In this document: positions 24,576 to 54,218 of the stretch, piece by piece
Numbering within the stretch: position 1 is the stretch's first letter
Layout: each line of letters starts with the position of its first letter
NCBI GenBank assembly: GCA_008632985.1
Contig: QPGO01000033.1
Location: 124,001 to 188,000 of the forward strand
Direction: 5' to 3'
Source: Psammoneis japonica
Lineage: Eukaryota
DNA length: 64,000 bases
The notes under the pieces: generated by a model
What the model saw: the letters and a program-made list of their open reading frames with translations, nothing else
Database searches by the model: none
Told to the model about the DNA's origin: nothing
Made by a program: the position numbers and the translations under genes

Positions 24576-24598
24576 TGACCAATTCTCTAGAGCAGATT

Positions 24599-24606
24599 GA
24601 GGGGAG
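24599..24606 (+). promoter_or_regulatory. Polypurine tract
   Basis: GAGGGGAG immediately before the TG of the 3' LTR. Confidence 0.8.
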
Positions 24607-24865
24607 TGTTTGAGTCTGTCCGTTGTCGGATGGACACACAGTGGCTGACGTGTTTTTTGGCTCGCTTTCATTCCAGCAGAAAACTGCTGTGTGTGCTCCA
24701 GAGAGCAGCAGCAGAGTCTGCCGTCACTTGCCAATGCTGTAAATAAGACTTTGGAATGATGTCTACGACACTCTGAAGACATTGGCAGAAGACCAAGAGA
24801 TCCACTCCAGGATCCTCTCACAATCTGAACAGATCACGCTTTGTCATTGTTTTGCTCTTTTAGCA
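24607..24865 (+). repeat. 3' LTR (3' end approximate)
   Basis: Follows the PPT; aligns with the 5' LTR. Confidence 0.85.
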
Positions 24866-25060
24866 CCTCCAAACAAAGATTCTGTGGGTCCATGCTCATT
24901 GGGCGGTCTTGCTTCAAGCAAACCGGTGAGAAAGCAAAGCGAGCAAAGACAACATCACATTTTACTCTTTTTGCTTGATCTCCTGCCGGCACCCATCGCA
25001 ACTCAATGAGCCATCTGAAACGCTGCTCGCAGACCAGTCTGCTGAAAACTGGGGCCTGCA

Positions 25061-32660: not shown

Positions 32661-33058
32661 TGCGCACGATTGTAAGGGGGGGTTAATCTCTTCTTAGTTC
32701 ATTAGGTTGAAACTTGTGCCGGTGCGAGAAGAGGTTTGGCCAAAAGATGATGAGAGTACGTGTCCCTGCGGCTTCGCTCTGCTGTGGTGGACAAAAAAAG
32801 TGAGATCGGCAAACTCAAAAAGAAGAATTGACGAAGATCAGTACGAGGCATCGTAGGTTTCTACGTAATAATTGTTTGAAGTTTGAGTCGTGGCTAGTTT
32901 TGCGGTGAAAAAGAGCTCGAGCGTCCGAAAGCGCAAGTGTCAACGTGACATCATGATGACGAGAGGCAGCTGTTGGATCTTCTTTTTTCCATCGTTTTGT
33001 GTTTTGCGTCCGAAATGGTAATAAAACGCAAGGCCGTACCAGCTGCTACCACCTCACC

Positions 33059-34121
33059 ATGAGACAAGAACGCCCAAGCCCAACCTCTATGGAGGGTATG
33101 ATCTGGAATGGTAAGTGAACGATGCAGCGGCGGAGTGCTTGAGAGATCTGAGTGGGAGACGAGAGGCGCCGTCATGCAACTGCCTTCCATCCCCAAAAAC
33201 CGTGACTCACGCATCCGCCCCCGCTTTTGCTGACAGCCAACCACATTCTCGAAAAGGCCTGAATCCTGTAAGTGAGATCTAATAAAATCTGTGACTGATT
33301 GATGGTTGTCATGAAAAACTAAATCCGGTAATTTTCTTACGTCGACATCGGCTGCTTCCATCTTATCGCATAATCCGAACTCTGATACTTAGAACATCAA
33401 TGGACTCCCCAAGTCTCTCTTTGACAAGTGCGTTGGCGTCGTAATTCTCAACGCCGTCCAAGCCGGACTTATATTCTCGGGAACCGTTGGCAGTGGTATT
33501 GCCATGAAGAAAACGGCGACCGGGTGGTCTCCTCCCTGCGCTGTCGGGCTCGGTGGCTTTGGCTTTGGACTTGTGGGTGGCGTTTCTGCTACTGATCTTG
33601 TCTTTTTCATCATGGACGACGAAACCATGAAGTCGATTGTCGCTGATCATGGCTTTAGCTTTGGTGCTGATCTTCAGCTTGCCATTGGGCCGTTCGGCAG
33701 ATCCGCAGAGGTCTCTGACATTATTGGAAACGGCGAGCTCGGCGCAGCCTTTGCCATTGCCTACTCCAAGGGTCTCTTTGGAAGTTTTCAAGCCAAGGGT
33801 GCCAAGCTTGGTGTTCGTTCGTTTGTCAACAACAAGTTCTACAACAGCACCGCTTCTGGAACAGACATTTGCTTCACTCCTGGAAGTGTCAAAGTCCCTG
33901 AAGGCAAGGTTACCATGCTCCAAGAGGTGTATGACAAGCTCAACAAGTGTGCTGCCGGACTTACCGCCGAACCCGATGCCGCTGAAGAATCCAAAAAGGA
34001 AGCCGCCAAGGAAGCGGCTGAAAAGGAAAATTCGGTCATCAAGAGCGCGCCTGAAGCCGAGGTCGTTGAGGTGCAAGATGCTGTGGATTCCGAGGCCGCC
34101 AAGGAAGCCGCTCATGCTTAA
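33059..34121 (+). CDS. SYLF/Ysc84-domain protein (copy A; 1-bp deletion in exon 2 creates TGA)
   Basis: Exons 33059-33110, 33237-33267, 33393-34121; GLIFSGTVGSG, WSPPCAVG, DLVFFIM, GPFGRSAE, YSKGLF. Confidence 0.85.
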
Positions 34122-37100
34122 TGCATTGCATGAGAAGCATTTTTTTTATTCATATGAAAGTAAATTTAATATGTTGTGGTGATTGAATGTTGAAGAATGA
34201 TTGGCAAAAGGATGCATCAAGTGGGATCGTCTAGTGACTTTAGGATTCTACCTGTACGTCTTTACTAAAACCTGTGTTTTAATACACCTTCAAGGACATG
34301 TTATTTTTGCAACAGGAATCACCAAACCAAAATGGTCATAATCCAAAGTACAGCAAAATCATTTTTTCGATTTTCTCAATAACCAATCTAAAGGGAAAAA
34401 ATGTTCTCTTGCTTATGGGCTTACTACCGTGCCACACCATCCTCGAGTTGGTGGTGCTGCAGCCTCCGCTGGCACAGTGTGTGTCAAGCAAGAGGACCCC
34501 ATCGTGGCCAGAGCTTGATTGTTGGGTTTGGGATGCTCCACACCACATGTCGGAGCATTTGCAACATGGAAAAAAATGGCCACTGCATGACAGCAGCTGG
34601 CAATCGGAACACCATCACCAGCAGCACAAGAAATTGGCAGCAACTGAAAAAAGTGGCCATTTGCCAGAGAAATGAGCTGTCTGGACAAACATCACTTCTT
34701 GAAAAGGCGATTGCACGTGCTTGAAATGCAAACAGGATTTTTTGCTGATGAGCAGAGGAAGAGACAGAGATGTGACTAAGGAGACATTTAAATTGTGAGA
34801 CTGCTGGTGAGTGATTTGGCTTGATGTGTGGGGCTGCAATTCTTTTGCCGACAGCCCCCACCTTGGGCCCCTGAAGGCACCCCAGCAAGAAAGTTGTCAC
34901 CCTCTCCAGCAATGCAATGAAGTGCACTGCCAAACCTGCCACCACTGGAAACCACACAATTTCCCCTGCCCTGACCCGCCCCTGTGCCACTTGCTCAGGG
35001 CCTCCAAAAAAGACTTCAAAATGGCATCACTGTGCTCATCATCAACAGCCATCAGAAGACTGCAGGAGATCAGATCAGTTCTTTTGCAGATGCCCAGCAA
35101 CAAGAAGATTGTTGAAGAGAGTCGGATTTCTCTGGGAGGCAGTCAGATGTGTTGGTGGTCAGTCCATGACACAGCAGGCACAAATGTCTTCAAAGTTCAC
35201 ACTGCAAACAACACTTGCCAGCTGGTCTGGTTGTGTCAGCCAGTCAATCACAGAGACTGATTGTTGTGGTTGCAGCCTGGACCTGCAGCATGATGAGTGC
35301 TTTGCAGCCTGGAACAACCATGAAAAAATTTTGGACTGTCAAATGGCACATCCAAGCAAACAAGAGCAGGATCCATGGTTTGTTGACAGAAGAACAGCAT
35401 TTCAAGTTGGTCTTAAAATTTCTCCTGGAAAAGCCATTCTTGAGACATGGAGACCAGCTTGAAAATGTGATGGATGAACCAATTGAGAAGATTGCAGCAA
35501 TGGTGGCATCTGAGCATCACGTGCTGTCCTGCATCCTGGTGCCAATGAAGGGTGTTGCACAGAAGTTTCACTTGATGGCAATGGCAAAGGTGGTCAAGCA
35601 ATGGGCAGCAGAGCAATTGGCAGCAAAACAATGGGATGAGGAGGGGAATGGAAAGTGGCAGTTTCAGTGGAAGTGTCAACAGCATGACCGTTCCACCTCT
35701 TCACAGATGTGTGCATGTGAAATCTGGCAGACAAAACCACTTTTTCCTGTTGTTGGAGAACAAATGACAACACCCCCACTGCAACATGTTTGCAACTGAA
35801 AACAGCAATTAAAATGTCTTCAACTCAAGTGGAAGATCAGGATCAGTGGGAGCCAAATGCCAGCTCTCATGCTTCTTCCTCATCACTTCTTTCTTGGCCA
35901 AGGGGGGGGGGGGGGTCACTGCAACAGATCCACTTTCTGACAGCTGTCTCTGCCTTTTTCAGGTCTTTGCATTTTTCAGTCCACCATGCCTTTTTCCAAA
36001 GAGAGCTTGTCTAGATTCTGATGCACTTTTTCTGCCTTTGCTTTGGTGAACATCTGTGCAACAGCTGGAGTGCAACAAGTGCCAGAGCTTTCCAATCTGG
36101 CCAGACATTTGACCCCAGTTCTGGATGTTGTTGTCAGTGTCATCCTGCTCATTGAAGCCAATTTTAAATGCCTGGGTCAAAAGACTCCTGTCACACATGA
36201 GTGGGAAAAGCACAGTTGTTGTTTTTTGAAAATCTTTCTTCCATTTGACCAAAGACCTCGGGATCATCTTCCAGGCATGCCCACTGAAAACAGAGGTCAC
36301 ATGCAGTGAGAGTTGCACATGTCCAGAATTGGGAGAATGACAATGCAGCCGCCTCTGAAATCTTGAAATCCATGGCCAGAAATGATTTAGAAGTGGGGCC
36401 TCAGTGACTTCTTTGACTTTAAGCACACTGCAATGAATTTGCCAAAACATTCCATGTGTCCAGCTGGAAGCCAGCCAACTTTGGATTGAGCTGGGATTTT
36501 CTCAACCATTTTTTGGTGGCAGATCAACAAGGCTTTGATCAAGACAAAGAGAGACATTGGTGGCTGGCAGACCCCAAATGCACAGGGCCAATGCAAGGAC
36601 AAACACCTTCCAATGATTTTCAAGGCCTGTCTCACCACCATTGCTGCAAATCACTTGGCAAGTGGGCTCCTCAATCTCTCCATGGCTTACAAGCAAGCAA
36701 TTGCACCATCAGATCCTGCTCTGGAGACAAGTTGCAGACCCAACAAGTTGCAGCTGACTGACTGGGTTGGCAACGATGTCAAAGAACTTGATGTCAGCAG
36801 TGTCTCACAGAAGAAAACCATTGGTCATTTGTGTTTGTTTGTTTTGATGATGGTGCAATGCCCACGACTAAAAAGCACACTGGGAAAATGAGGCGCTGTG
36901 GTTGGTGGTCAGAAAATTCCATTTTTGTCTCTAAAAGATCAAATGGATCAGTTTTCAGTTGAACTGTGAGCGCAGCTGTGCTCAATTTGGGCTCCAAGCC
37001 AAGAGAGCTGCCATCACATTGACAATCTTTGGATGCTGTTTGCTTGCACCATGTCATCTCCGTTTGCACCATTGGAAACAAGAGGCCAAGAGCATGCTGA

Positions 37101-37544
37101 CAATGCAACAACAACTGCATTAAATGAGCAGGGCCACAGCCACATGGACCCAGTCTTCACCCAAGGCAGACATGTCTTGTTTTGTTTTCAATGCTTTGTG
37201 GGTCTGATCAACATTGACAGCAAACACAAGAACTCCCAACAGTGACAAGGTGGTGGCATCTTTGTGTCTTGCTTGCTGAACTCTAATTTGTCCCCCCATG
37301 CACTGGGCATCTAGAGTGGGGTTCTGAAGAAAGAATGTTGCAGGTGGCAAGAACGTGTCAACTGTGCTGGACCATCTAGATTGCTGTCATTCCAAGCATT
37401 TGAAGCATTGGTCATTGGCTGACAATCACTCCTCGACTTGTCCATGTTTGTCACAGTGGCAGTCGCCAAGGTTGCACACAATTTTCATGCACCAAAAACT
37501 GCGTGGACGGTGACCTGAACTGACCTTCACACATCAACAGATGA

Positions 37545-38065
37545 CAGCAATTGGGTGATCGCCACTCTGTTCTGTCACCCAAGTGCTGTGCCACATGATG
37601 GGACTCATGGTGGCAAACCACATCTTCTGGGATTTGTGTGGACTTGATGCAAGCCCTGACCTGATGGAATGGTGCAAAGGCAACTCCAGTGGGGCACTCT
37701 TGTGTCCTGCATGAGCGGGACTCATGACACACCCAACATCATTTTAAGCTGCAGTTTGCAACAGTTGCGTGCAAACCACAGCACGAAGAACTGAGTGCTT
37801 GGCACCGTGGGATGATGGGTGATGGGGTGCAAGCATTGGATGATCTGGCCTTTGTCCAGTGGTTGGTGCTGCAGCAATTGGGTGGTTGCCGCTGTGTTCT
37901 GACACCCAAGTGATTGATGCTGCACCACACAATGGGGCTCATGGTGGCAAGCCACATCTCCTGAGATTTGTGCAGGTTTGATGCAAGCCCTGATCTGACA
38001 GAATGGTGCAAAGGAAATTCCAGTGGGGCATCCTTGGATCCCACATGCATGAGCGGGACTCATGA
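37545..38065. repeat. Two diverged ~185-195-bp direct repeats (37545-37727 and 37872-38065)
   Basis: Both run CAGCAATTGGGTG...GAATGGTGCAAAGG...TGCATGAGCGGGACTCATGA. Confidence 0.85.
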
Positions 38066-39588
38066 GATGCCCATTTGACTGTCAGGCCACCTTGAAAGTG
38101 GGGGGCAAGGACAGACCACTTCTCCGGAGCCTCGCGCACACATTTCTTGGGCCAACCAACGACCTTGGAGATGCAAGCCTCAGAAGACCCAACTGCATTC
38201 TCTGAGGCCATCCCCTCAGAGCTCATCAGTGTGGCCACCCAAGGGCTCACAGGAGCAAGGCAGCATTCTTTTGCTGAGCACTGGTGCTGGTGGCTTGTGT
38301 GGCAGCTTTGGAGATCCCTCTGCTTGCACTGTGGCAATGGTGCTGAGGGCTGAGTGCTGCCAGCAGCCATGGTGCATTCAACTGTTTTCTTCCATTGAAG
38401 AGAAAAGTTCCCACACTGTCCTTTGGATGTGAGTTTGAGATCTGTCAGTGCCAGACTTGGCATTGCATTGATGGGTTTAGTGGGCTGTGTCTTTTTGCCA
38501 CTTTGTGTCAGGAGGTTGTGCATTGCACAGCAAGTTTTCTGGTGATTTGGTGGGAGCAGGGTGTTGGAATTTGCATGGAGGAGCTGCATTGATGTGCAAG
38601 GTGCTGGTTTTGTTGATGTGTTTGACTTGGGTGTTGTCTGCTGTTTGAGGCAGAACATGAGCAGATGGTCTGAGACAGGTGTGCCATGGTCTGGGTGTGT
38701 GATGGCACACACTGGCGGTGGCCACATTTGGCTGGTCACATTTCAAGGAGAGATCATTGTTTGCAAGGTGGCCCACTTGGGGGGGGGGGGGGCATGCATG
38801 CCTTTTTTGATTCTGACATGCACCCAGCCATTTTGTGGGCAAGTTTGCATGACAGTTTCTTTGATCAATCCATGTGCAAGTGAGGGTTCAGTCAACTTTG
38901 GATTTTGGAACAGATTTGACAGCATCCTCTGTGCCTTTGATGTGGTTGCTGACACCTTGGGATGCACTGCAAATTTTCTCAGCAGAGAACCCTGCTTTTG
39001 GGTTTGGCGAGTGGTTCATCACAATTTGTGGATGCTCAAGTGCTGGGGTCAACAACAGCTCCTGCCCACGGTGAGTCAGAGACAGTGTGTTGTGTTGTTG
39101 ACTCAACTCAACACAACGATTGCTGGTTGGCACCAGTGCCCTTTACAGACTTTGGCCCCTGATGGACCCAACCGGCTGGGGTGCAGAACTCCTTGGAGAA
39201 AAGTTCCAGACCGGCATCTAAGAAACAGAAATGGAAAAAGAATGTTTTGCGATCGTGCTCAACCCGAAGTTGAGGAGCAACACCGTCAGTTGTCCAGTTC
39301 GTCGGATGACAACAGGTCCCTGGCACAGGTTGCTTCATTGTCGCCGGTGAAGCCGTCGGTTTTCCAGTCATGTCAAGCAGGTCCCCGGCACAGCTGATGA
39401 AAAAAGAGAGAGTCGCCAATCTACCACGATTGTCAGGAGTCAGAATGCTCCTGTGCTTGTGCCTCAACCTCCTGGTCCTGAGATGCACAACGACGTTTGG
39501 TTGGAGGTCTTACATTGTCGTCGTGATTGTTTGTCAGATCGAATTCCCGAATTCTGGGTTGACTGCATGCCCATCTGCGCAGCGCCGC

Positions 39589-42500
39589 TCATTCGTCCTG
39601 GAGTTGCACACCAACCCCAAGCTTGCGAGACAGACGTTCTTGGGCTGCCACGATGTTTGCCAGCCAAGAGCGTTTGAAAGAGGTTGACTTCGAGAGCAGC
39701 GAGACAACGTGACTGCAGAAATGACAAGCGAGTTCCCCTGGGAGACCTTCTTGGCCCCGCTGAAAATGGTGGCGAATCCACGAGTCTAGCTCGTCTCTGG
39801 CTTGCTCGCTGATTTGAGGGTGGGCGGCGGCGTTCCCATGTTCCCACAGCCGATGCGTTGTCCCGACAAGCTGGTGAACCCATCTTCTGACCCATTTGGA
39901 TCCCGATTTTCTAGAGCCTTGGAGCCAGAAATGCTCCTGTTGCAGCAGAGCCCACTCCTTCACTGCACAGCCCTCCAGAAGTCTGTCCCAGCCGATGACA
40001 CATTGCGACTCAACCGCCTGACGAAGGATTGGGCTTGCGCAAGGGTCGATGCGGACATTGACATTTTGCTGGCTACACCAGGCAGTGAGGTGTTCCTGAA
40101 TGGTGCTCGCTAAGCCAAACGCCGCATCGTTGCGATCCACCCAGCGGATGTGTTTGCGCAAGAGCGACCTCCACTTGTCCGTGGCCTCTGGGCAAGCAGT
40201 GACGTGCGTAGTGTCTTCATTGTCGGCGTCGCACCGGGGGCATCGCGAATGATCCTGAGCCTTCCAGCGTTTCAGCCATTTGCCTGCTCTGCACATTCCC
40301 ACCGCGTGTTTGGCCATCCACCATCGTTTGCCGATGCCAAGACTCCTGGCGACAGTCTGAATGACATCCCAATCGATCCTGTGAAAGCCCTCGTCCGTGA
40401 AGCGTCTTTTTTGTTCGATCCAGCATTTTGCCAGCCGTGTGCCGTGAACGTGGTGATGCAGTCGATCAGAAAGCTTTGTCAAGATCTTGTGTCCTCCAAC
40501 GAAGACACCCCACATTTCGTCTTTGATGTCAAACTGTCATGGCTGCCTTTCCTGGGGGTCTAGTCTGGCCTCATGTTGCCATCGAGCTTTAGCTGGGTTG
40601 TCCATCTCAATGTTCAGTCTTGCCCATCTGTCGAGTCTTCTGCATCGTAGAGTGTCTTGATGTCCTTTGACCCACCGGAATTTCCACCGCAGTGGGCTCT
40701 TGGTGATTTTAGCCTTGACAGCACTTAAAATGTCGAAGTCGTTGGACCGAGCTGTGACGGGAAGAGTGGGGTCCGACAATTTTCGTAGAGCTTGTTTGCC
40801 GTCACAGGCAATTTCAATTGCTCCTTGATGAACGTCATGATGCAGACAAATGTCTTCAACTGTGCAAACAATGCCGTGGAGACCCGCTGTCTCCGCTCGG
40901 TGGGAATTCGCATCACCAGGGTGACCTGGCACAACGTTGGCACCCGTCACTGGGTGGGTGTCTCATTTGCCTTGGACAGTGAATGCCGATGTTGCAAGAT
41001 TGTCTTTAGCCAACCCGTCACTGACAGCAATGGCTGCTCCTGATTTGATGGCGTTGGCAACATGCAATCCGTCGTCGTCGACCGAGACTTTGTTGTTTGC
41101 CCATTGTCTGGCTGGAGGTCGTTGGCGGAGCCGTTGGAGAAGATTGATTGGGGCTGGGGCGTCTTGACTGAGTCTCGTGCCGGTGGACCCCGAGCGACAC
41201 ATTCCCCATCTGTCCTTGCCTTTGCGGTGAACACGGGTGCGTTGACTGTCGTCGGGCATTGCAGCCGGTCCAGCCGGAATAAATCTGTGATGATGGTTTC
41301 TCATTTGCCTGCTGCTCAACAACCTGAATGAAGTCCATTGGTTGTTCTGACCTCTTTGACACAGTCGTTGTTCAGATGGAGAGTGGAGCCAATGCCAGCA
41401 GGAATCATTGTCTCTAGTGTCGGGAAGCCAGGCGCCCAAGGGACGGCGCAGTTGCCTTGAATGGACATTGGTGGCCTGTGCAAAGCAGTGCCTTAGAGCC
41501 TTGCGCCACATCGTCCAATCGGCAGCCTTCAGGCATTGCTGCGGGGGCCAATTGCGCTGGGACCGAAAGAAGACATCCTTCTTTCCATTCCACATGTCAC
41601 ACAGAATGTCGCATCCATCACCAGTTGAGATGTCAGCAAGTGTCACGACATTCAGGAAGACACGGCAACGATTGAGGGCCTGCAGCTTAGCTCCGACAAA
41701 GCCGTCATCTGCAAATCTTTCCATGAGAAAGGCGTCATTCTCACGTGAGAGTCTCAGCAACGGTGCATCTTCGTTGACTCTGATGTCGTGGCTCGACAAG
41801 AATTTCCAAAGATGTTTGACCCATGATTGGGTGGCCAGGCGCTGCCGATTCCAACTTCCAGCTTGTGTTTCTCCACAAGTGCTTGGAGAAGTTGACCCGT
41901 GATCATGTCAGCTTTGCCGTGTTTGACAAAGGCCTCGACATGTTTCCTGTGCATGGTGGAAGCAATCGATTCAAATCCGAGGCCCTGCAGTTGGATGGGA
42001 CCATGCACAACTGCGCGGGGAAAGGACTTGCACAAACCTGATCTCGGAAGGCCTTGCTTGAGCAGCGGTGCTTCGATGCATTTGCATTCTTTTGACGACA
42101 GGGTCAGGGCGAGAAGAGGACAGTCGAGGGCCTTGCGGACTCATTGAGTCAGAGCCAGCCACGCATCAGCCTTGGAAAGATGACCTGATCGAGCCCAATC
42201 TGCCCAACCTTCAGCATGCTTCCGGAGTTCTTCCACTGCCTTCCTGCAGTTTCCGTCAGGGGCCAGCCACACTCCTGGAGTTTTCTTGGTGATGGAGGGC
42301 GAGAGCCGTTCGATCGGATGTCTAGTTCCTTCTGCATCCTCTGCGCACATCTGTGGGTCATCCTGGTTGTCAGGATCACTGTCTTCGTGAACGCACTCCC
42401 ATCTGCCATTCACCATTTAAATTCGATCAGGTGCCACCAACATTTGTCCGGACGAGTGTCGCCTCCCGCAACTCTCATGCCGCCTGCAAAACGGTCCAGT

Positions 42501-45330
42501 CCTCTCTGGGCTTCTTGGACAACTTCCCACCCCGGTTGCAGCGGATCTGTGGCTGTGTGAATGATGTCACTGTCATCGACGAATGCAAACCCCACTGTTT
42601 GAAGTTCCTTGTTCGAGATGGCCAGACGGAAGGCTGCCCCGTGACCCGCAGTCCTCATCATTTCAAGAACGGGAGCACTGACTGCCGCCCAAATCTGGGG
42701 GGCATTGCCGTCACCTTGACCGAGTCCTTGTGGAGGCTTGCAATCTGATTCAAAGTTGTCGGGGTCAAATGCGATTGCAAAGAGGTCGCCACCGAATGAT
42801 TGCTCGGATTGACCATAAATTGTTTTTACAGTGTGCTCCATCTGCTGAAGAGCAGTGAATTCGCAGACAATTGGTGGTTCTGGAGCTCCTTTGCTTTGCA
42901 TTGCCAGTGTGGCGCACGAGTGGACGACAAGGTCGTAGCACGAACGCAAGTCCACAGCGGTGTCCACAGCGTTGATTCTGTCCACTCGAATGAGGTCAAA
43001 AATCAGTTGTTTGTTCAGAGCTTGTTCTTCCGCTGAGTGACCCTTCCTGCTGCCGCACTGCTCCCGGGCGATCCATTGCCTGGGTTCAGCTTTCCTCATC
43101 ATTTGTTGTCCAAGGATTTTGTTGTTGTTGTTTGCATCCACTTCAAAGCACAGAATGGGCCGCAGAGCATCCACGCATTCTTGTCCTGTTTTCTTTGGGA
43201 TCAGAAGGTCCATGCCTTGTTGCCATCGCTTTGGAGAGCAGCCTGAGATGTGGGGAAAGTTTGCCTGGAGGCATCAAGTTGGGTGAGGGTGTCGTCAAAA
43301 CGAGCAGCTTTGAAATGGGCGGTGTACAACCCCGAGGGACCAGCGCAGATTTTTTCCTTCGCTCTCTTCCAAGACTCCGTGTGTTCTTCTGTGGAGATCC
43401 ACGGTTTTGCATCCACAGAGCTGTCAGGCGGGTGCCGCAGATGCAGAAGGTGTTCTCGTGCATGTTGAGTCGCACCCGGTGGGAATTCATACGACCCGTC
43501 TAGAATGGCATCTGCATGGGGCCCAACTCCGAGAAATTGGACGTCGTTGATGAGCGGCTCCTGCATGAGGGCGGTCCGGTGAGTTTGATGCAGTCTTAAC
43601 TCACAGTCTTGGAGGGCGAGAGTTTCCATTTCCTCTTTGTCCGTGACCTCTCGATCGGAGCCGTCTGCTTGTTTCTCGAGGAGACGTGTGAGTGGAGATC
43701 GGAGAGGTTTGCCGGAGATCCGATTGACTCTGCAATTCTGCTCCCTGCTCTCTTCGCGGTTGATGAGCACCCGCAGTTGTGTTTTGGCGTTGGAGTTGTT
43801 GGCTTTGGCCAGCTGTTCCGCTTGCTTCTCTAGAAACTTACGTCAATGATCAGGAGCATCTTTGGCGATTGCTCGACACTCTTTGCAGCGCAGCGATGAA
43901 CCTGCCTCCAACTGTTCGAGAGTGAGGGTGTGCACGTTGAAGTCTTTTGCTTTCCTTTCCAGACGACGTATTTTCCCAGAGCTGATCGTGAGGCGTTTCC
44001 GTCGGCGAATCAGGGCTTGATGCAACTCGATTCGCTTGGACGCTCGTTTGAGCTTGGGGGACCAGGATTTGCCTCCCATGCGAAGCTTTCTGCATTTTTT
44101 GTCGGCGAGCCATGTGCCTTGAACTCGCAATTCATCAATTCTTTCCCATTCATCAGTGAGGTTGGGATGCGGGGGGCAAGCAGCTTGCTTTTCGTTTTGA
44201 ACACTCCTGTTGGGAAGATTGTGTGTCAGTGCACGGCGTTTACGAATTTTGTTGAATCTGCCAACAGTGACTGGATTGTCAAGTTTAAGTCTCCAAGTGG
44301 GGTGCCTTTCGAGTTCAGGGGGAAGCGCACCAAAAGCGGTCTGAAACGAGACATCGATCCAAGCCATTCGGTGGTCGGATCCTGTGATTCTATCTCCAAA
44401 AGGCAAGAACCCGCCCTGTTCGATTGTCGTGCCTGCAGTGGCCCAGATGCCGTCAAATGGAAGGGAGCCAGGGTTCCGTGTTGCTGGAAGTGAGTCTTCT
44501 CCGCAGCGCTCTGTCAGCAAATTTCTGAGTTGCACAGCTGAGAAGGCGTCTTTGATCTCGGCAGACCGAATGTCTTTGTTCACGTCACCTGACAGAATGA
44601 TTTGATCTCCGTCCGCAAGCCACTTGATGACCTCCTCAGTCAGGTCCTCGATCCAGGCTGCTCGGGGACATCTGTCGTCGTCATGTTCATTGAGATGCCT
44701 TTTGTGCTGGGAGCAAACTGTCCTGGCGCCTTTGCAACTTGCACAGGGCCGGTGCGCTGTGACAATGTGAAGAGTCGCGCCTGCTTTGCCATGGAATCGG
44801 AGCCAAGACCACCTTCCCAAACCAGACGAATCTGTGCCTCTTGCAATCACTCTGTGTCCCGCTTGATTGATTGCCATCAGCATTGTGCCACCTGGCTGGC
44901 AGAAAGAGGAATGTAAGTCGTGAACGTTGCAGGCGGCCAAGATGGACAGAGGATGTTCCCAGTGCCCTCGGAATCTTTCCCTCGGTCGCTCGGAATGTGG
45001 GACGGTTTTCCAACACCTTCCAGTTTCGTTCATGCATGACACATTGATGCATTTTTCTTGGACTGTGCGGTGCACACTTTGGTTTTTTTGATCTTTGTCA
45101 TCCAAGGGAAGGCCGCTGATGTTCTGAAATGCAATCCGCAGGGTGGTCTCAGGTTTTTCATTGGTGCAAGCAGCATCATGTGTCTTGTTGTTTGATGGTT
45201 GTGTGGTGGACTCGTTGCTCGTGCTCTCTTGTTCGACATCGAGTTTTCTTTTTCTATTTCTGTTGCGGCGGCTGCCTCTCTTCGTCAAAGGACCACGTGG
45301 CCGCCCACCGTGATCCTTCTCTTCATGCAC
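39589..45330 (-). pseudogene. LINE ORF2 (endonuclease - reverse transcriptase - RNase H), frameshifted
   Basis: Pieces 43843-45330, 43201-43770, 42410-43213, 40963-41799, 40537-40950, 39589-40515. Confidence 0.9.
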
Positions 45331-48300
45331 TGCTCGGACTCACCGGCTTGGTCCCACACCAAGCCGGCTTGAACAATCTGAGTGTCGCCCTGGAAGGGAT
45401 CCGACTCCCCTCCCCGCATCGCTGCAGTGGCTTCACTGGAGACGCTTTGCGAGGTCTCCATGTCATCGTTGTGTCCGTCGCTCTGTTCACCAAGAACAGA
45501 TCCTGTGTCGACAGATTGGGCAATCTTCTCCTTTCCTTTGAGGAGGGCAGATTTGACCAGCCCAACAATGTCCGCTGGAGTCATGTTTTTTGCATCGACA
45601 TTGTCGGGGAGATGGACTGCCAGGTCCTGAATCTCACCAGTGATGTTGGCCATTTTCTGTTTTGCAGTCTCCGTGGTTCCCGAGGTCTCGTTAGATTGGT
45701 GGGATCCATCGTCGGAAGATTTCTTGTCTGTCAGTGGTTGCTTGGTTGGATCGACATGAGCATTTTTTCCTTTCCCAGCTTCTCGAGCCGAGGCCAGTGT
45801 GTCTTCGTCAAGGCCACCTCGTCCGAGCATTGCTGGGTCGACAGGTTCTGGAGCGGGAGGGGTGTTTTCAATTGGTGAGTTGTCACGCGTTACCTCAACT
45901 TGGATGTCTTCCAGATTCTCAAAGTCATGGTCGTCATTGTCCAGCTCCTCCGCCAAAGCTTGGGTGCGTGGGTGAGTGGTTGCATGCTTTTCTTCGTCCC
46001 ATCCAGCTCCTTCCACATCCTGCACATGGGAGGCAGTAAAGAACCTTTCAACACCATGTCCGCATCGATGCTGCAGGTGCAGAAGCAGGGAGTGAGCCAT
46101 GGGAATGGCCTCGGACTCCACCTGTGGATGACACATCACCGCAGCGGTTCCTCCTTTGCACTGAGGAAGCGCTCCTACCTCCATGAACTGAGCAGATTTC
46201 GGTTTGTTTGGTCTTTTGATCATTGCGATCATCTGCCGAAGAGTGAGTTTTGCAGCTGGATCAGGTGCGTTGAGAGCTTGAACATTGTGGAGAGGAGCAA
46301 TTTTTGCGTGTTTCAGGTGGGCTTGCTGCCGGATGACTGCCGTGTCCACAAGATCAGTCTCGGTTGGGCTGATGCAAAAGGAGCATTCGGGAACAAGCTT
46401 GGCGATGGTTCCGAGCGGTTTGTTGGGGTTCAATTTGGAGAACATTGCTTGGAGAGGACCTCTGGCATTGTCTGCATCTCGTTCGTTCATGATGATGTGT
46501 AGAGCCTTGGGTTGTGGGTGTGCGGCCATTGCGTCTGACGGTTTAGAGACTTTCCAAGCACGAAGCTCAACTGGCACCTTAAGACGAGAGCTGGTTTCCT
46601 TTTCGAGCTGAGTCGGGTCGAGATCGGCGTGAGCCCACATGAGGATGAAGCCTCCTTTGGTTCTTTCTGCCTTTTGAAGGACCTTGGGTTTGAGGAAGAC
46701 TTTGAATGCGTCATTGAGTGTGTTTTTAAGGATCTCCTGATTCTCATTGGGGTGTTGGTCCATTCCGAGTCGGAGGTCGATCCAATTGTCTTTCTCCAGA
46801 TTGAGACGAACACGTTGGAGATGCTGGCACATCTGTCCGAATGGGAGCTTGGAGAACTGCTTCCGAAAGGTTCCGCCCTTGAGAGCAATGGCCTTGTTGC
46901 CGCAGTCTCCCGACCACGTTGCCACTGCAACATTGTTGCCGGTGAGATTGCACGCTCTGTCCATGACCTTGCCAAAAAAATTTTCCAATTGAGACTTCTG
47001 GATTTTCATCCTTTGGGAGATTGGATTGTGCAGGGAGTTTGAGAGTGCAGCGACATCAAAATTTTCGGATGGTTTTGTTTGATTTTGAGTTGATTGGGTT
47101 GAAGAAGGCCAATGCTTTGATGACTTCATTTGGTTCTTCTGCAGGTGCCGTCTCCATTGATTGCAATTCATTGTGGAGGTCGTTGTTTTCTGGTCCTTTC
47201 TTGACTCGTTTGTTGGGTTTCTGAGTTGTTTTGGTTTTCCCTTTGTTGTCGGGAGTGATTTGCTTGGTCGGTTGTCCTGAGCCGGCCTCATTCGCAGAAG
47301 TGGAGATGGCCTTGGCCGTTTTCGTGGCTGCCGCGTCAGGGGCTCGAAGGGTGTTTTTTTTGTTCTTGTCAGTCGTCTGAGTTTGTTTCTGGTTGGGTTT
47401 GGTGCCTTCCGAAGTGACCTTGGATTGTGCCACCTTGAGGCTTGACAACAGTGTGGTCGATTTCTGTTTGTTTTCAGCTGTTTTTTTCTTGGTCGAGAGC
47501 GTCGTTCCTGTGAGTTGACGAGAAGTCTTTGAGGGGATTGTGGTTTTTGGATCGGTTGTTTTTGGCGTGATTTCTTCATCGGAGCTGGAGGTCTCGTCGT
47601 CAGATGATCCTGTGGTTTTGAAAGGCTTGGGAACCGGCGGCACAACACCAAGAACCACCACGTTGTCATCAGAGTCCTGGGGTGGATCGGAATGATGAAG
47701 GAACTCTCCGTCCTGTGGGGTTTCGCCACTGCTGACCAAACTAGAGTCAGAGGACAAGGAGGAGGATGATGAGGAGGATGAGGAATTTGTTCCTTCTTTC
47801 GAAAAGGAGGAGACACTCTCGCTGTCCTTGATCTTGGCCTGGAGTGCAGCGTGCCTGCGTGCTTCCTTTTTTCAATGCTTTGCAACACGCGCCTTTCATT
47901 GCTCTGATTGGAGAGATCATCTTGAAGGTCTTCATCAACTGGAGTGTTCTTGGTGAAATTGTTGACAAAATCCTCTTCAGAGTTGAGCGCAAAGTCGACT
48001 AGAGAGTCTTCGTCGCCGCCGCTTTGGAGAGGTTCATGCCTGTTTTTGTTGTGTTGATTGATCGAACGAGGGGAGTCAGTGGGAGCCGAGATCTCTTTGT
48101 TGGAATCGTTCATCGACACTTCCAGTTTCTCATTTTTTGCAGTGTTCTTGGGGGTCTTGCAGCCACTGTTGTCTTCTTTGAAATCCATCTGTTTCTGACC
48201 GATTTCAGCCGTTGCGCCAGGAGAACCGTTGGTCTCAAGAAATTTTTTGATTCCTTGCTGTTTCGGATGCATCCTTTTTTGCTTGCGCTTGTCGGGAGAA

Positions 48301-48380
48301 CTCACATCAGTTTGAGAGGTTACTTTCTTGCTGGGTGAGGAGGCACCCTTGTGTTTGGTGCCGTTTTGCTTGTTGGCCAT
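45285..48380 (-). pseudogene. LINE ORF1
   Basis: 1031-aa ORF upstream of the APE; low-complexity N-terminus; probable compensating frameshifts at ~47.05 and ~47.8 kb; contains no Tyr. Confidence 0.75.
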
Positions 48381-50204
48381 GGTTGATTTTTGTTGCTGGT
48401 TTGCGCAGGTGCCAGCACTGAGTTTGTGTGGACTTTCCGGGTTGCTTTAGACGCTGATGCATGCTGGAAAAGTGCATGTTGTGTTGTTGTTTAAAAAAAA
48501 ACAAGGTCAAGAGCCAAACTCTTTGTTGGTTGGCATTGTTTGCAAGCAGTTGGTGTGCAACAGCATGATTGGCTCTGGGCTTGCTGCACCAGCAGGAGCA
48601 TTTTAACTGCTGGCATTGTCAAGCAGATTTTTTCATGCTCCACCCTCAGAAGTGCAGCATTGAAAATTTTGGACAATTGTTTGATGGCACTCAGCAAAAG
48701 GGGTCTTCAGAGTTGGGCATTTTAGTTCATCAACCAGTTTGTGTTTGCTGCACATGCTGTGGCTGCTGCATTGCTTCAAGAGAAAGTCATGTCAGCTTTG
48801 TGAAAAAAAAATGACAGTGCCAGCAATTTGTTCTTTGTGTGCTTTTGGAATGAATGCTTTGTGGCATGGAAAGCTCCAGGGTCATGGGTCCCCAGTGCAC
48901 TGGTGCCTTTGATCCCATGATGTGGGGCCCATGTTCCTTGTTGTGTCAGCTGTTCTCATGGTCTGTGCACACCATTTGGTTCCCCGGCGGGGTGAGCGGC
49001 ACTTTGTTGCAGTTGCACAGGGGACAGAGCTGGGTGTGTGCTGACAATGCTGGAATGAGCCTGGAGCTTCTGATTGTGTTGAAAGTTTGTGCTGCTGGGG
49101 ATGTCAGGCAGTGGTGCAAAAGGTGCAGTGTGGGAAATTTTTGTTCGCAGAGCAAAGGCCAGCAACGAAGTGGTTGGCTTTTTGAGCGTTTGGACAGCTC
49201 ATCCTGTGGCACTGCATGGTGGAACAAGCTGGCACACAGCCTTGCTGTCAGTCAGGTGTTCTTCCTTGCTTGAGCTTTTTTCAGGGTGCTTCATTGTCAA
49301 GGCAGCAATGCAAAGTCATCTTGGCTTTTGAGTCCCTGGGTTTGTTTTGCAGAAAAGTGGCTGCAGCAGAGTGCTGTGCTTGGAACATTTTGCCACATGT
49401 GTGATTTTGATTGACTCAACTGGGATGGCATTGCTGCAACAATTGCCAATGACAAGAAGATGTTTGCAGCCTCAGCTGGATTGGGCAGGGAAGTGTCTGG
49501 TTGAGCATTGAGGGCAGCGCATTGAGGGCAGCGCAATGGATTCGATCATCGGCACAGTGTGGCCGTCATTGCAACAATCAACAATGTTGGGACAGAAATC
49601 ATGGCACCATCTTTGGGGTCTTGGTTTGGGTGGAAGTCTTTGGAGTCAATTGCAGTGGTGCACACATGCTCTGGAGGTTCTTCCACCATTTGTCTGGACA
49701 TGTGCTGACCATGTTTGACAAAATCATTGTGCACCCTCTGACACACACCACACAAAAAAATTGTTGCGCACCTTCAGACATGGGGGAGTTCTTTTGACCT
49801 TGCAGCAAATCTCTCTAAGCTGAGCAAGCTGCACCCTCTGGTTCTTGCAGTGCATGTGTGGGGCTTGTGGACAGTGAGAAAAGAGAGCAGTCAAAGGCAC
49901 AAACCTCTCAAGGTCGATGAGCACAAAAGGGTGTTTTTCCCAGTGCCTGCACTGGCGCTGCCACACTGCACAAGCAAAATCACTCCTGGCTGGATGTGGA
50001 GCTTGTTCTGCAGCACCACCTGGTGTGAGTTCAACCACTTCACTGCCATCTAGTAGCTAGAGTCCATGATCCTCTTGTTCTCCAGAGCAAACTGGGGGAC
50101 AAAATTGCTGCGCTGATCCTTGCTTGTTACAAAAGGCCGACAAACTGACACAGACAGCTGCCGCCGATACAAGAAAAAATATATGTAGCATTTATCCCTG
50201 CTTA

Positions 50205-50513
50205 TGCACACGAACCACCTGGTGGTCCGTGTGCATTTTGGTGCACACGACCACCTGTGTTCGTGTGCACCTACGCAAAATGCTGCGTAGATTTGTACCG
50301 AATTAAATCTGAATGCCTACATCTGCAGTAGGCTCTACGTGAAAACGCACTCGAAACAGTGTCCACCGAGCCGGCAGTCATGTGCCGGAACGTCGTGAAA
50401 AGTATTTTATGTCTGAGAAAGAGTTCGTCAGGGCCGGCGAACAACACCCTCTACGATGCGACTGGTATAAAATGTACGTAAATGCACAGGAACCAGCATG
50501 TGGTTCGTGTGCA
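50205..50513. repeat. Three copies of a ~30-bp imperfect palindrome plus two short hairpins
   Basis: TGCACA...CGTGTGCA at 50205-50235, 50241-50270, 50483-50513; CTACGCA..TGCGTAG at 50271-50290; GCCTAC..GTAGGC at 50315-50333. Confidence 0.75.
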
Positions 50514-50588
50514 AATTAGAGCTCGTGAAAAATAAGCAGGGTTATCGGCAGTCGCGGCAGAGAACGAGAACGACCGTGCCACCTCACC

Positions 50589-51691
50589 ATGAGAAAAGAT
50601 CGCCCAAGTCCAACCTCCATGGAGGGTATGATCTGGAATGGTAAGTGACGATGTTGTGTTTTGAGATTGAGAAGTCTTGAGCAAGAACTGTAGACGGATA
50701 TTCTTCTTCAAGAATTCATAGCGTCATACCACTAGCGCTCTTGCACTTTGCCAACCACCAATCGAATGGCTCACGACTTACCTCGCCTTTTTTTTTAATC
50801 GCAGCCAACCACATTCTCGAGAAGGCTTTGAACCCTGTAAGTCAGTTGTTGCATCCATTTGTTGAATAGTCCTAATTGATGAAGAACGAAAGTCTTTAAC
50901 TCAAACTTGTTATATCTCTGTCTCCTTTACTTCTCCGGAAATCTAAAATACGATAAATCCAGAACATCAACGGCCTCCCAAAGTCTCTCTTTGAAAAGTG
51001 CGTTGGTGTCGTGATTCTCGATGCGCTTCAGGGAGGTTTCATTTTTTCGGGAACTGTTGGAAGTGGTATTGCTTTCAAGAGGACCGCGACTGGATGGTCT
51101 CCTCCCTGCGCCGTCGGACTCACCGGCATTGGCTTTGGATTCGTGGCTGGCATGTCGGTGAGCGACCTTGTCTTTTTCATCATGGACGACGAGACCATGA
51201 AATCGATTATTGCCGACCATGGCTTTAGCTTTGGAGCCGATCTTCAGCTTGCCATTGGGCCGTTTGGTAGGTCTGCGGAGGTCTCTGACATTATTGGAAA
51301 CGGCGAGCTCGGCGCAGCCTTTGCCATTGCCTACTCCAAGGGTATCTTTGGTAGTTTCCAAGCCAAGGGTGCCAAGCTTGGTGTTCGTTCCTTTGTCAAC
51401 AACAAGTTTTACAACGCCACAACCTCTGGAACCGACATTTGCTTCACTCCTGGAAGTGTCAAGGTCCCAGACGGCAAGGTGACCATGCTTGAAGAGGTGT
51501 ATGACAAGCTCAACAAGTGTTCCGCTGGAGTCACCGCCGAACCCGATGCCGCGGAGGAATCCAAAAAGAAATCCGCCAAGGAAGCGGCTGATAAGGAAAA
51601 TTCGGTTGTCAAGGACGACCCGGAAGCTGACGTCGTCGAGGCCCAAGAAGCTGTGGATGCCGAAGCCGCCAAGGAAGCTGCTCATTCGTAA
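50589..51691 (+). CDS. SYLF/Ysc84-domain protein (copy B, intact)
   Basis: Exons 50589-50640, 50805-50836, 50963-51691; paralog of 33059-34121. Confidence 0.9.
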
Positions 51692-52137: not shown

Positions 52138-53745
52138 TTAAGATTCCATGTCCTTTAAACGTTCATCAATGTCTCGAAGTTTCTCCTTCATCCTTTCCTT
52201 GTATTCCTTGAGTGTTTCTTGTGTGGGTAGCTCCGTGCTTGTCTTTTGTGTGGCTCTCGTTGGCGATGTCATTTCCGCTGCTTGTTGTACTTGTTTCATT
52301 TGCTCAGGTCCCAGCTCGGTTGTCCACTTGCCGTATTCTCCCTCGTCGAGAATATATCCCAATGGCTCGTTGAGTGGCTTGAGATTGTGTTTTCGTCCCG
52401 CTTCTTCAATGGCATAGACACAATCCCCCAGATTGCCACCCTTTTCCAAGGCTTCCACGAGCGCTTCATAACACACTTTGTAATGCTTCAAGAGCAAGAC
52501 GGCTTGCAACGCTCCCCATCGTGCTTGATTCCGAATCGAATCGTCATTCCACGGTGGCAGGGCTCCATTGTCGGCGTTTCGTCTCCCGTTATTCAATTGA
52601 CTCAAAAATGCCACAAGCGCCGCCTCATCTCCCGCTCCACCATCGGCTCCACCAAAATAAATCGCTTCGGCAGCAATACCACCCATCACAATTATGGAGT
52701 ATCGATCAATACTCGATCTCGTTACGACAGAAGTATTGATTTGTTGACTCAGAATTGGATCAAAGAATGACGTCCCCGCCGACACTCCGGTCCGTCGTCC
52801 ACCAAAACGAGCATCCTGCAACGCTTGCCACGCATCCAAGACACACCCCTCCACGGGACAACCCAAGAGATAGGCTGCTAAAAAATGTCCCGCCTCGTGT
52901 CGTAAAATCTTGTTGGAAATACCGGGAGAAAAGATTTTGAGAATGGATTCAAAGACGGCACCATTGATCAAGAGTCGATCAAAAAAGGCCAAGGCAAGGG
53001 TCGACAAGACCAACAAGTTAATGTTAATGTCGAGTGCCACACTGGCCATGCCTTCTAAAACCGCAAAGGCAATTCCCGCAAAGAGTAACGTATTGGTTGG
53101 TTTGGGTGTCAACGATTTCATACTGAGGTCAGTAACTTGTTCCAATAAAGTCGGAGTTACAATATGCGATCCCGACGCGGGTGCTCCACCCGTCGGTACA
53201 GCTCCAAACAATTTCAAGTGATCCAAGTCTTTTAGAGTAGTGTACATTTCCGTCATGGCATTGCGTGACGGTGACACGGGTGGATAATTATTATCCGTCA
53301 AGGCACGCGTGTTGACGGTGTTTTCTTCGGCACGGGCCGTTTCTTCTTCAATCGCATCAAAGACCTTGGACCAGCGTTGACGTGATAATTCCATGGTGGG
53401 ATTTTGTTGTAAATGAACAATGGCTTGTTTGAATTTTTCGCCATCTTCCAACAAGTCGTCCATGATTTTTTCGGCGTGGCGAGTGTCCTTGTTTGGATCA
53501 TTTATTTTTGTTTGTGTTTCTTCTGGTTGTTGTTTTTGTCTAGCAAACGGACTCTTCCAATACCGAGCAGTTGACAGTCGAATAGATGGAGTAGTGTTTA
53601 TGGATCGACTCGTTCTTGTCGTTGAGGTTAATGGGGCCACAAAGGCATTTACAGAAGATATACTGTTGGAGGTTGTGGCAAGCAGAATTAGAATTGCTGT
53701 GCTTGTCGTGCAGAGCGCTCGCGGTTTTGTCATTGTGGATTTCAT
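52138..53745 (-). CDS. Plastid-targeted M41-like zinc peptidase-domain protein lacking AAA domain (VIR3/FtsH-protease-domain-like)
   Basis: VNA-F presequence, two TMs, RHEAGHFLAAYLLG, MGGIAAE...GGAGD. Confidence 0.8.
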   Translation of the reverse strand: MKSTMTKPRALCTTSTAILILLATTSNSISSVNAFVAPLTSTTRTSRSINTTPSIRLSTARYWKSPFARQKQQPEETQTKINDPNKDTRHAEKIMDDLLEDGEKFKQAIVHLQQNPTMELSRQRWSKVFDAIEEETARAEENTVNTRALTDNNYPPVSPSRNAMTEMYTTLKDLDHLKLFGAVPTGGAPASGSHIVTPTLLEQVTDLSMKSLTPKPTNTLLFAGIAFAVLEGMASVALDININLLVLSTLALAFFDRLLINGAVFESILKIFSPGISNKILRHEAGHFLAAYLLGCPVEGCVLDAWQALQDARFGGRRTGVSAGTSFFDPILSQQINTSVVTRSSIDRYSIIVMGGIAAEAIYFGGADGGAGDEAALVAFLSQLNNGRRNADNGALPPWNDDSIRNQARWGALQAVLLLKHYKVCYEALVEALEKGGNLGDCVYAIEEAGRKHNLKPLNEPLGYILDEGEYGKWTTELGPEQMKQVQQAAEMTSPTRATQKTSTELPTQETLKEYKERMKEKLRDIDERLKDMES

Positions 53746-54218
53746 TCTTCTTCGATGGTTCTTTCAAGTTATCGATTTTCGACTCTGTACGATAATGTCG
53801 TGTTGTGAGAAGCGAGTGATACACCTTCTTTTCGAATTAGACAATACGCACAAGATAGAATCAGCAAAGCAAGCCGACGCGATGATTCTGTTGTCCATGG
53901 CGGACTTTTTGTTTCTTCTGCGCCAATCTTGAGCTTGCAAGATCGTGAGTGACTCAGCCGACTCTTGACGTCACGAATGTTTAACGGTCGTTAACCGTAA
54001 TAAAAATTTGACGCGACTTGCGCACGTCCAACCATCCGTTTTGACTTCCGTTGAGATCAATCTGCGAAAAATTGAAAAAACAATGCCAGGCGACCATCAT
54101 CTCGTCGTGCTAGTAACTCTTCAAGCTCCCACTCTTTTGCTGGGCCTGTTATCACGACTAGTACATCATTCGAGTGCAACCGGAGAGTAGCTGAAGACAA
54201 GTCAGTACAGAGCACACC

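Follow-up and report, generated by a model that had tools for sequence, protein, structure and literature searches.

Long transposon-like blocks in a diatom contig have lost nearly all TpA steps to TpG or CpA, in a process apparently separate from CpG decay

Natural hypermutation of DNA from A:T to G:C is almost unknown, and our literature search retrieved no report of it beyond one 2026 preprint on the alga Bigelowiella natans (Mettrop et al., bioRxiv 10.64898/2026.01.13.699255). In mutation-accumulation lines of B. natans, an integrated nucleocytoplasmic large DNA virus (NCLDV) and an integrated virophage together received 231 of the 302 new single-nucleotide mutations in the nucleus. All but one of these were A to G or T to C changes, and all the GC-ward ones were at TpA. 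The process operated de novo at about 1000 times the background rate, in some lines only, and the TpA-poor coding sequences of the genome were enriched for reverse transcriptase (RT), endonuclease-RT and DDE domains. The authors proposed an ADAT2-like adenine deaminase, cited in their Discussion the preference of ADAR and ADAT for U ahead of the edited A, and drew a comparison with repeat-induced point mutation (RIP). The terms 'context', 'trinucleotide', 'flanking' and 'diatom' do not occur in the main text of the preprint. TpA hypermutation in diatoms was not reported in the literature that we searched, nor in the portions consulted of PMC2806351, PMC9998398, PMC4504042 and bioRxiv 10.1101/2025.10.24.684338. 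Here we describe a TpA-depleted locus in the diatom Psammoneis japonica, a stretch of 64,000 nucleotides (assembly GCA_008632985.1, contig QPGO01000033.1, positions 124,001–188,000; hereafter, the window) in which a dead retrotransposon of the long interspersed nuclear element (LINE) type, at 39101–48476, is nested inside an older element. We hold with good confidence that long mobile-element insertions at this locus underwent targeted, near-saturating hypermutation of TpA to TpG or CpA (A:T to G:C, on either strand).

Every long transposon-like block in the window has lost nearly all of its TA steps to TG or CA. The observed/expected ratio (o/e) of TpA is 0.57 in the host DNA of the window and 0.04–0.10 across six segments resembling transposable elements (TEs; 27.8 kb). 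The host CpG o/e is 0.99. One TpA-poor block, at 34.4–50.0 kb, contains the LINE (TpA o/e 0.10, CpG o/e 0.74) and the outer element that the LINE splits into a left part (34450–39100; 0.06 and 0.13) and a right part (48478–50040; 0.04 and 0.15). A second block, at 13.7–26.1 kb, spans a wide range of CpG o/e (0.10–0.75) over three segments: 13700–17633 (TpA 0.04, CpG 0.10), a Copia-like segment with ends resembling long terminal repeats (LTRs) at 17634–24859 (0.05 and 0.30), and 24860–26150 (0.07 and 0.75). TpG and CpA stand at 1.3–2.2 in all six segments, ApT is 0.74–0.89 versus 0.92–0.99 in host DNA, ApA is unchanged, and the other dinucleotides are near host values. Within the TE segments, the loss is specific to the TpA dinucleotide. 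General AT-to-GC drift in heterochromatin was excluded as an explanation, with ApT and ApA taken as unchanged.

The LINE combines TpA poverty with abundant CpG. It retains 49 TA steps versus approximately 291 expected from the host's own o/e (Poisson P ~5e-69), and its CpG density is 50.9 per kb (477 CG) versus 8.2 per kb in the DNA it splits (Fisher P 4e-56). The number of CpG per 100-bp bin rises from 0–2 to 5–8 at approximately 39.1–39.2 kb and falls from 3 to 0 at approximately 48.5 kb. The first-pass annotation of this DNA had described a CpG-rich, TpA-poor LINE, interrupting DNA poor in both dinucleotides, with a CpG switch at the element ends. The computed ratios bear out both deficits and the LINE contrast, place the switch within ~100–200 bp of ends set by a 13-bp target-site duplication, and extend the pattern to the block at 13.7–26.1 kb. 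No segment of the window is CpG-poor with normal TpA, and two (the LINE and 24860–26150) are TpA-poor with near-native CpG.

The element at 39101–48476, on the minus strand, is a dead non-LTR retrotransposon. The target-site duplication that flanks it is exact over 13 bp (39088–39100 on the left, 48477–48489 on the right) and has these two matches and no others in the whole window, 0.01 being expected by chance. Self-comparison revealed neither terminal direct nor terminal inverted repeats in the LINE. Its 3' end (at 39101) has no poly(A) or other A-run and terminates in two TTGAG units. We identified an RT open reading frame (ORF) of 287 amino acids at 42410–43273 (minus strand) that matches Pfam RVT_1 (E 2.4e-7; 31.1 bits versus a cut-off of 29.6) and has 3173 relatives at E<=1e-3 in a representative library, many of them 1600–1900 amino acids long. 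The remnant of a large ORF (39619–45141, minus strand), which includes the RT and a long C-terminal part, aligns to these 1600–1900-residue relatives and is broken by three frame changes (at ~43264, 42400 and 41850) and by in-frame TGA stops. The N-terminus of the large ORF carries motifs, recognized by eye, that we take to be endonuclease-like. Pfam detected no APE-type endonuclease in the ORF at 43843–45339, and likewise none in three full-length relatives. Upstream of the RT ORF lies a long, ORF1-like open frame of 1053 amino acids (45285–48446, minus strand) with no family match in Pfam. As the LINE is nested in the outer element, it must be the younger of the two.

The scarcity of TpA also shapes the coding potential of the LINE. 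Counted on both strands, its stop codons comprise 385 TGA versus 71 TAA and TAG together. With almost no TAA or TAG left, TGA is nearly the sole remaining stop, and dead elements retain very long ORFs in more than one frame, the 1053-residue frame described above among them. A few tyrosines do survive in the LINE, in the motifs SCYD, TIYG and GSYE. The first-pass annotation had seen in them a patch at approximately 42.8–43.5 kb. The three residues are real, but they form no significant cluster: the 49 remaining TpA steps are spaced like a Poisson process (gap coefficient of variation 0.95).

A family that avoids TpA natively, for example through its codon usage or to evade a nuclease specific for TA or UA, would explain a trait common to all TE-like segments in the window, and TpA is mildly low even in the host DNA (o/e 0.57). 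We examined the DNA of 83 related LINE loci, 79 on metagenome contigs and 4 on contigs of metagenome-assembled genomes, which share 35–57% protein identity with the LINE. All 83 have normal TpA (o/e 0.48–0.89, median 0.73), and none of their 879 1-kb windows has a TpA o/e <0.25. Tyrosine averages 2.76% in the best 150 of the 3173 protein relatives, with 2 of the 150 below 1%. We also observed a low CpG o/e (0.29–0.45) in four of the related loci (L061, L037, L076 and L063), whose TpA o/e is 0.75–0.88. Viral contigs yielded 36 pattern matches, none of which was confirmed. The first-pass annotation had itself named a natively TpA-free family as the finding that could overturn its claim; the 83 relatives speak against such a family.

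Conserved codons of the LINE tell a similar story. Alignment of 81 relatives of at least 1000 amino acids to the LINE with tblastn gave 611 conserved columns, 16 of which have a tyrosine majority. At these 16 positions the LINE has two Tyr (TAT and TAC), six Cys (TGY), four His (CAY), three Phe (TTC) and one Ala (GCT), so that 2 of 16 tyrosines are retained versus 447 of 595 residues in the other conserved columns (Fisher P 3.9e-7). For example, the closest relative (P0277, 60% identity), the sole protein at E<=1e-30 in a search with the RT ORF that was limited to 157–503 amino acids, has Y at positions where the LINE has H, C and C. Furthermore, T precedes 3 of 86 retained codon-initial A versus 41 of 151 conserved codon-initial G, and 7 of 14 inferred first-position A to G changes are preceded by T. 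The deficit of T before A across codon boundaries indicates that TpA was lost regardless of codon position. The Cys and His residues that stand in for conserved tyrosines in an ORF already broken by frameshifts and stops, together with sister repeats that differ through TG/CA doublets (described below) and the normal TpA of all 83 relatives, make native or selected composition highly improbable.

The mass balance of dinucleotides identifies the products. In the big ORF of the three closest relatives (L001–L003), each kb holds 40 TA, 57 CG, 58 TG and 91 CA, and in that of the LINE 5.8 TA, 54.7 CG, 75 TG and 98 CA, a difference of −34 TA, −2 CG, +18 TG and +7 CA. Judged against these relatives, the TA steps of the LINE have become TG and CA with CpG hardly changed, and its TpA poverty was acquired by mutation and is not native.

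The loss of TpA has run to completion in DNA that retains almost its native CpG. The data support a loss of TpA (A:T to G:C at TpA) that is distinct from CpG decay (G:C to A:T at CpG). Decay of CpG driven by 5-methylcytosine (5mC) accounts for the CpG loss of the older segments and not for their TpA loss. Several of the related LINE loci are CpG-poor (0.29–0.6) with normal TpA; CpG therefore decays elsewhere without TpA loss, in hosts that methylate but lack the TpA process. Three crude estimates, calculated by hand as ratios of −ln(survival), give roughly a 5–10-fold faster loss per site for TpA than for CpG. In the conserved codons of the LINE, tyrosine TAY survives at 2 of 12 positions (when Y, C and H outcomes are counted) or 2 of 16, versus approximately 20 of 28 for arginine CGN, a rate ratio of ~5. 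Comparison of composition with the three closest relatives (TpA o/e 0.10 versus ~0.65; CpG o/e 0.74 versus ~0.9) gives ~9, and the repeat pairs described below give ~7. A separate and faster TpA process, as the first-pass annotation had proposed, is supported, its faster pace by all three measures (ratios ~5–9).

A single deaminase-type process acting on both C and A at YpR steps (Y, pyrimidine; R, purine), with the CpG of the LINE spared by chance or by local protection, would account for the co-occurrence of the two losses in the older segments and for their common products, TG or CA. The B. natans preprint cites ADAT2 enzymes for which both A and C in DNA are substrates (bioRxiv 10.64898/2026.01.13.699255). 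Such sparing would have to hold over the 9.4 kb of the LINE and again over 24860–26150, where TpA o/e values of 0.07–0.10 accompany CpG o/e values of 0.74–0.75. It would also have to hold in a tandem pair of 94% identity that has all four CpG intact beside three doublets. Furthermore, the listed differences between the window and contigs of run X1 in the outer element include CpG-type changes and none at residual TpA. A single process is, on this evidence, very unlikely.

Pairs of internal repeats indicate when the mutations arose and on which strands. Self-comparison found in the LINE neither tandem repeats of useful size nor an internal repeat pair on which doublets could be scored. Three pairs are available outside the LINE, with 488 aligned columns in all. 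The LTR-like ends of the Copia-like element (17634–17821 and 24607–24859) differ by 34 mismatches, of which 32 are transitions, with eight TG/CA doublets. A tandem duplication within the outer element (37545–37735 and 37872–38073, plus strand) has 29 mismatches, 24 transitions and five doublets. The third, a tandem pair at 24128–24238 and 24465–24575 (plus strand, 94% identity), has seven mismatches, six of them in three doublets, and its four CpG are intact in both copies. Pooled, the pairs have 70 mismatches, including 63 transitions (32, 24 and 7), and 23 adjacent double mismatches, of which 16 are TG in one copy and CA in the other; chance would yield approximately 10 adjacent doubles over all eight transition classes combined. 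The pooled YpR classes are CG/CG 6, CG/(TG or CA) 8, TA/TA 1, TA/(TG or CA) 2 and TG/CA 16, from which simple arithmetic estimates a per-copy loss of ~97% of TpA and ~40% of CpG. A TG/CA doublet arises because a single palindromic TA (or CG) has been hit twice independently, once per strand. A further doublet, at 38464/38465, distinguishes the window from a run X1 contig of the same locus that includes the LINE junction. The doublets in the repeat pairs show that the process acts on existing DNA copies, each separately, using both strands.

These pairs also bear on whether the elements arrived in the genome already TpA-poor. Editing of UpA from A to I by an ADAR- or ADAT-like enzyme before integration, fixed through retrotransposition, would deliver TpA-poor copies. 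Both identifiable elements are indeed retroelements (the LINE with RVT_1 and the Copia-like element with a weak RVT_2), and ADAR and ADAT enzymes typically favour a U ahead of the adenine that they edit. The sense strand of ORF2 has a modest excess of TG over CA relative to the three closest relatives (+18 versus +7 per kb), and mutation of the LINE in situ is itself graded only as likely. However, both strands of the LINE were struck (six Tyr to Cys and four Tyr to His), TG and CA are similar in abundance in the Copia-like and outer elements, and the doublets of the LTR-like and tandem pairs require independent events after both copies existed. The doublet at 38464/38465 likewise separates two versions of one locus. 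In B. natans, the same signature arose de novo in integrated DNA-virus sequence (bioRxiv 10.64898/2026.01.13.699255). Hits on both strands and doublets therefore weigh against sense-strand RNA editing fixed by retrotransposition, which we regard as unlikely. The LINE copy was likely mutated in situ and not copied from an already mutated source. Its differences from other copies, 1659 in total (A>G 339, G>A 404, C>T 319, T>C 263, transversions 333), are compatible by kind with in-situ and inherited mutation alike.

The window was also compared with the contigs of run X1 through 40 listed differences of the 1659, those in the outer element being from 34.4–38.6 kb only. At a likeness of at least 80%, the outer element is represented in run X1 by one contig of single-copy-like depth and the LINE by several contigs, although contig depth is not a copy number. 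The outer element differs from X1 by 5 letters in 1915 bases and by 11 in 3300. The differences listed between 34442 and 38575 fall at 16 sites (~0.3%) and are mostly transitions; seven of them are CpG in one version and TpG or CpA in the other. Every X1 contig disagrees with the window at seven listed LINE sites; at four of these, the contigs read CpG where the window has TpG or CpA. CpG-type differences of this kind indicate that CpG decay is still going on. We also observed that the X1 contigs of the same locus resemble a second haplotype or strain bearing the same nested insertion.

The four CpG-type LINE sites, which are possible 5mC miscalls, could raise the suspicion that methylation or another modification of the repeats led to errors in assembly or base calling. 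The outer element, poor in both TpA and CpG, recurs at ~99.7% in the X1 contigs, although these may stem from the same sample, and miscalls do not yield codon-level changes from Tyr to Cys or His together with frameshifts. We consider the probability of an artefact negligible.

The comparison with run X1 also bears on the two-stage clock of TE age that the first-pass annotation had derived from the different speeds of TpA and CpG loss. None of the 21 residual TpA steps in the two halves of the outer element lies at the 16 differences listed from 34.4–38.6 kb, and seven CpG-type changes are listed there, so TpA loss is not a constant-rate clock. The TpA process either saturates at a floor of resistant T-A-R sites (o/e 0.04–0.10) or acts as an early burst. 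As the TpA stage saturates and the CpG stage depends on methylation, the clock does not go beyond an idea.

The sequence context of TpA influences its survival. We scored trinucleotides separately in the LINE, the outer element and the first block. Relative to host DNA, TAT stands at 0.00–0.03 and TAC at 0.01–0.09 in these three sets, and TAA and TAG at 0.11–0.24 and 0.14–0.25, respectively. Among tetranucleotides, R-TA-Y is almost gone (two ATAC left versus 226 in host DNA, and no ATAT versus 99), and Y-TA-R makes up the majority of surviving TpA. T-A-Y sites are nearly erased, with TAT preferred over TAC, and T-A-R sites partly persist.

The TpA loss is also confined in space. TpA returns to the host level within ~100–200 bp at both ends of the 34.4–50.0 kb block; the ends of the 13.7–26.1 kb block are less sharp. 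Nearby host genes, two Ysc84 paralogues and a 460-bp repeat resembling a miniature inverted-repeat transposable element (MITE) are spared. Within the window, TpA loss is restricted to long TE-like blocks.

Together, these patterns would be explained by an enzyme that modifies a base at TpA in resident DNA. The leading candidate is a TadA/ADAT2-like deaminase that would turn adenine into hypoxanthine. In the natural tRNA substrate of TadA/ADAT2, a U stands ahead of the edited A, and it is for this reason that we favour this type of enzyme. Oxidation of thymine at TpA to 5-hydroxymethyluracil or 5-formyluracil, giving T to C, is an alternative chemistry that would leave an equal signature. The process may serve to defend the genome by recognizing either the chromatin of TEs or their homology, much as RIP does but with the base change reversed. 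In the older elements, CpG would have been lost through ordinary deamination of 5mC at the same time but at a lower rate; under this proposal, the younger nested LINE is TpA-poor yet CpG-rich because CpG is lost more slowly than TpA. A more specific proposal, which we put forward tentatively and would not yet back, is that diatoms, or this lineage of them, possess a RIP-like defence of reversed chemistry. Its enzyme would edit A (or T) at T-A-Y in the double-stranded DNA of newly integrated long elements, erasing >90% of TpA while methylated CpG loses about a quarter, and the defence would be an old one shared with Bigelowiella across algae of the SAR group (stramenopiles, alveolates and rhizarians).

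Several points weigh against targeted hypermutation of resident DNA. The whole case is read from the sequence of one 64-kb window, and its ancestral states are reconstructed from relatives that are only 36–60% identical in protein. The signature is absent from all 83 relatives, which come from other organisms, so that hosts of this LINE clade do not share it as a rule. The LINE contains no repeat pair and may derive from a source that was already mutated. In the repeat pairs, CpG can also yield TG/CA doublets, although a hand estimate that pools heterogeneous pairs attributes only ~1.3 of the 16 to it. The context expectation was drawn from host DNA and not from unmutated elements. The absence of change at the 21 residual TpA steps among the differences listed means that the process is inactive there now or acts on T-A-Y only. 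Furthermore, the outer element and two other segments are without TE identification by Pfam.

The remaining features of the TpA-poor blocks are as follows. The outer element is made up of a left half at 34450–39087 (TpA 0.06, CpG 0.13) and a right half at 48490–50040 (TpA 0.04, CpG 0.15). In the first block, the Copia-like LTR retrotransposon remnant (17634–24859, plus strand) has a weak RVT_2 match at 22477–22848 (E 0.006, under the Pfam cut-off). Besides this match, Pfam found no TE domain in 129 stop-to-stop ORFs of at least 75 amino acids; a weak ankyrin match lies at 13720–14013. The latter falls in older TE-like DNA at 13700–17633 (TpA 0.04, CpG 0.10). This oldest TE-like segment also contains a run of 22 G (15647–15668) and the single N of the window (~15.9 kb), which may mark an assembly join. 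At the edge of the block, the segment 24860–26150 (plus strand) carries a Tyr-free open frame of 369 amino acids (25046–26152) with no Pfam match and no homologue at E<=1e-5 among proteins of 202–646 amino acids. Sequence resembling tetratricopeptide repeats (TPR) appears in other frames past this ORF and continues into normal host DNA. The segment could be a host gene reached by spill-over of the hypermutation, like RIP leakage, or another mobile element.

The MITE-like repeat at 50100–50560 (460 bp), with 41-nt inverted arms at 50205–50245 and 50473–50513, shows no TpA depletion (TpA 0.79, CpG 1.11). Its depth in X1 contigs is ~950–2000 versus ~59 in adjoining DNA, and this depth only hints at copy number. 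Short repeats seem to escape the TpA process. The two Ysc84-domain paralogues (33049–34121 and 50579–51691) have the same orientation and bracket the whole 34.4–50.0 kb TE block. They share 78% identity over 1.1 kb, and their TpA is normal, that is, spared. Their use as a 'repeat' control was dropped, since copies of that identity and length are too old to be informative. Contigs of run X2 lie over these flanking Ysc84 genes only, with none over the TE block, and we conclude nothing from them. In run X2 we also noted a GT..AG joint at 50836/50963 in the right-hand Ysc84 copy that resembles a spliced intron.

The window is eukaryotic, and its other host genes are ordinary ones that encode mitochondrial carriers, an LPA1/Rep27 photosystem-II factor, a CorA-like transporter, an Na/Ca exchanger and a DnaJ-domain protein, in addition to a BTB-domain frame, a Kelch-repeat frame and the Ysc84 paralogues. 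For the host protein at 52138–53763 (minus strand), the best relatives that carry a name are from diatoms: an MMETSP transcript labelled 'Asteri...' (65% identity), Seminavis robusta (55%), Cylindrotheca (53%) and Chaetoceros tenuissimus (50%). Its nearest clusters are Bacillariophyta, and on these grounds the host is treated as a diatom. The clusters obtained for a CAX transporter, Ascomycota and Streptophyta, were uninformative.

The locus has implications beyond the elements themselves. It suggests that the process is not peculiar to one alga or to viral inserts and may be a widespread defence against TEs and viruses in SAR phytoplankton. It also provides testable specifics: T-A-Y is preferred, resident copies are acted on, CpG loss is independent and a short repeat is spared. 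For annotation, dead elements free of TpA hold long false ORFs that gene callers would take for genes, and in genomes of this kind TEs will seem older than they are when dated by total divergence. The responsible activity is a possible source of natural DNA adenine-modifying enzymes. If the tentative proposal of a T-A-Y editing defence were true, no earlier case of natural immunity by editing of adenine in DNA would be on record for a major group of phytoplankton, and the loss of TpA would take with it almost every Tyr codon and almost every TAA or TAG stop.

Among known systems, RIP in Neurospora and other ascomycetes offers a functional analogue in which the base change is reversed. As in RIP, dinucleotide-specific transitions here affect both strands of TE or repeat DNA nearly to saturation and turn elements into pseudogenes, and the mutated block has sharp ends on its two best-defined sides. 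However, RIP changes C:G to T:A at CpA and so creates TpA, whereas the A:T to G:C change inferred here destroys TpA and creates CpA and TpG. The TE segments show the opposite of the RIP signature (TpA enriched, CpA and TpG depleted). RIP is triggered by sequence duplication above a length threshold; here the outer element has one X1 contig of single-copy-like depth (depth being no copy number) and the LINE several, and the short MITE-like repeat and the 78%-identical paralogues are unmutated. Deamination of 5mC shares with the present process the production of TpG and CpA from a palindromic YpR step, and is also at work in the older elements of the window. It differs in its target (CpG), in its direction (G:C to A:T) and in its slower pace here, the LINE having largely escaped it so far. 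Hyper-editing by ADAR and mutation by APOBEC in animals are likewise deaminase-type attacks on mobile elements with a neighbour-base preference (for ADAR, U before A). The substrates of these enzymes are RNA or single-stranded cDNA, so that only one strand is marked, in contrast to the both-strand changes in resident DNA copies seen here. ADAR is not known to occur beyond animals.

The closest resemblance is to B. natans. The target (TpA), the products (TpG and CpA) and the involvement of both strands are the same, and in both cases the changes keep to DNA that is foreign or mobile and has integrated, the remainder of the genome (here, of one window) being normal. The evidence in B. natans is direct, from mutation-accumulation lines, whereas the present case is read from sequence alone. 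The host here is a diatom, a stramenopile, and not a chlorarachniophyte rhizarian, and the targets are retrotransposons and other TE-like DNA in place of viral inserts. The depletion is near saturation (o/e 0.04–0.10), unlike the Rho of 0.45 in the B. natans NCLDV region. TpA loss in the diatom also co-occurs with CpG decay and can be ranked against it; neither this ranking nor a preference for T-A-Y over T-A-R was found by a term search of the preprint's main text. The LTR-like and tandem pairs provide further evidence at this locus. The locus is best filed as the same kind of process as that of B. natans, with a new host lineage and a new class of target.

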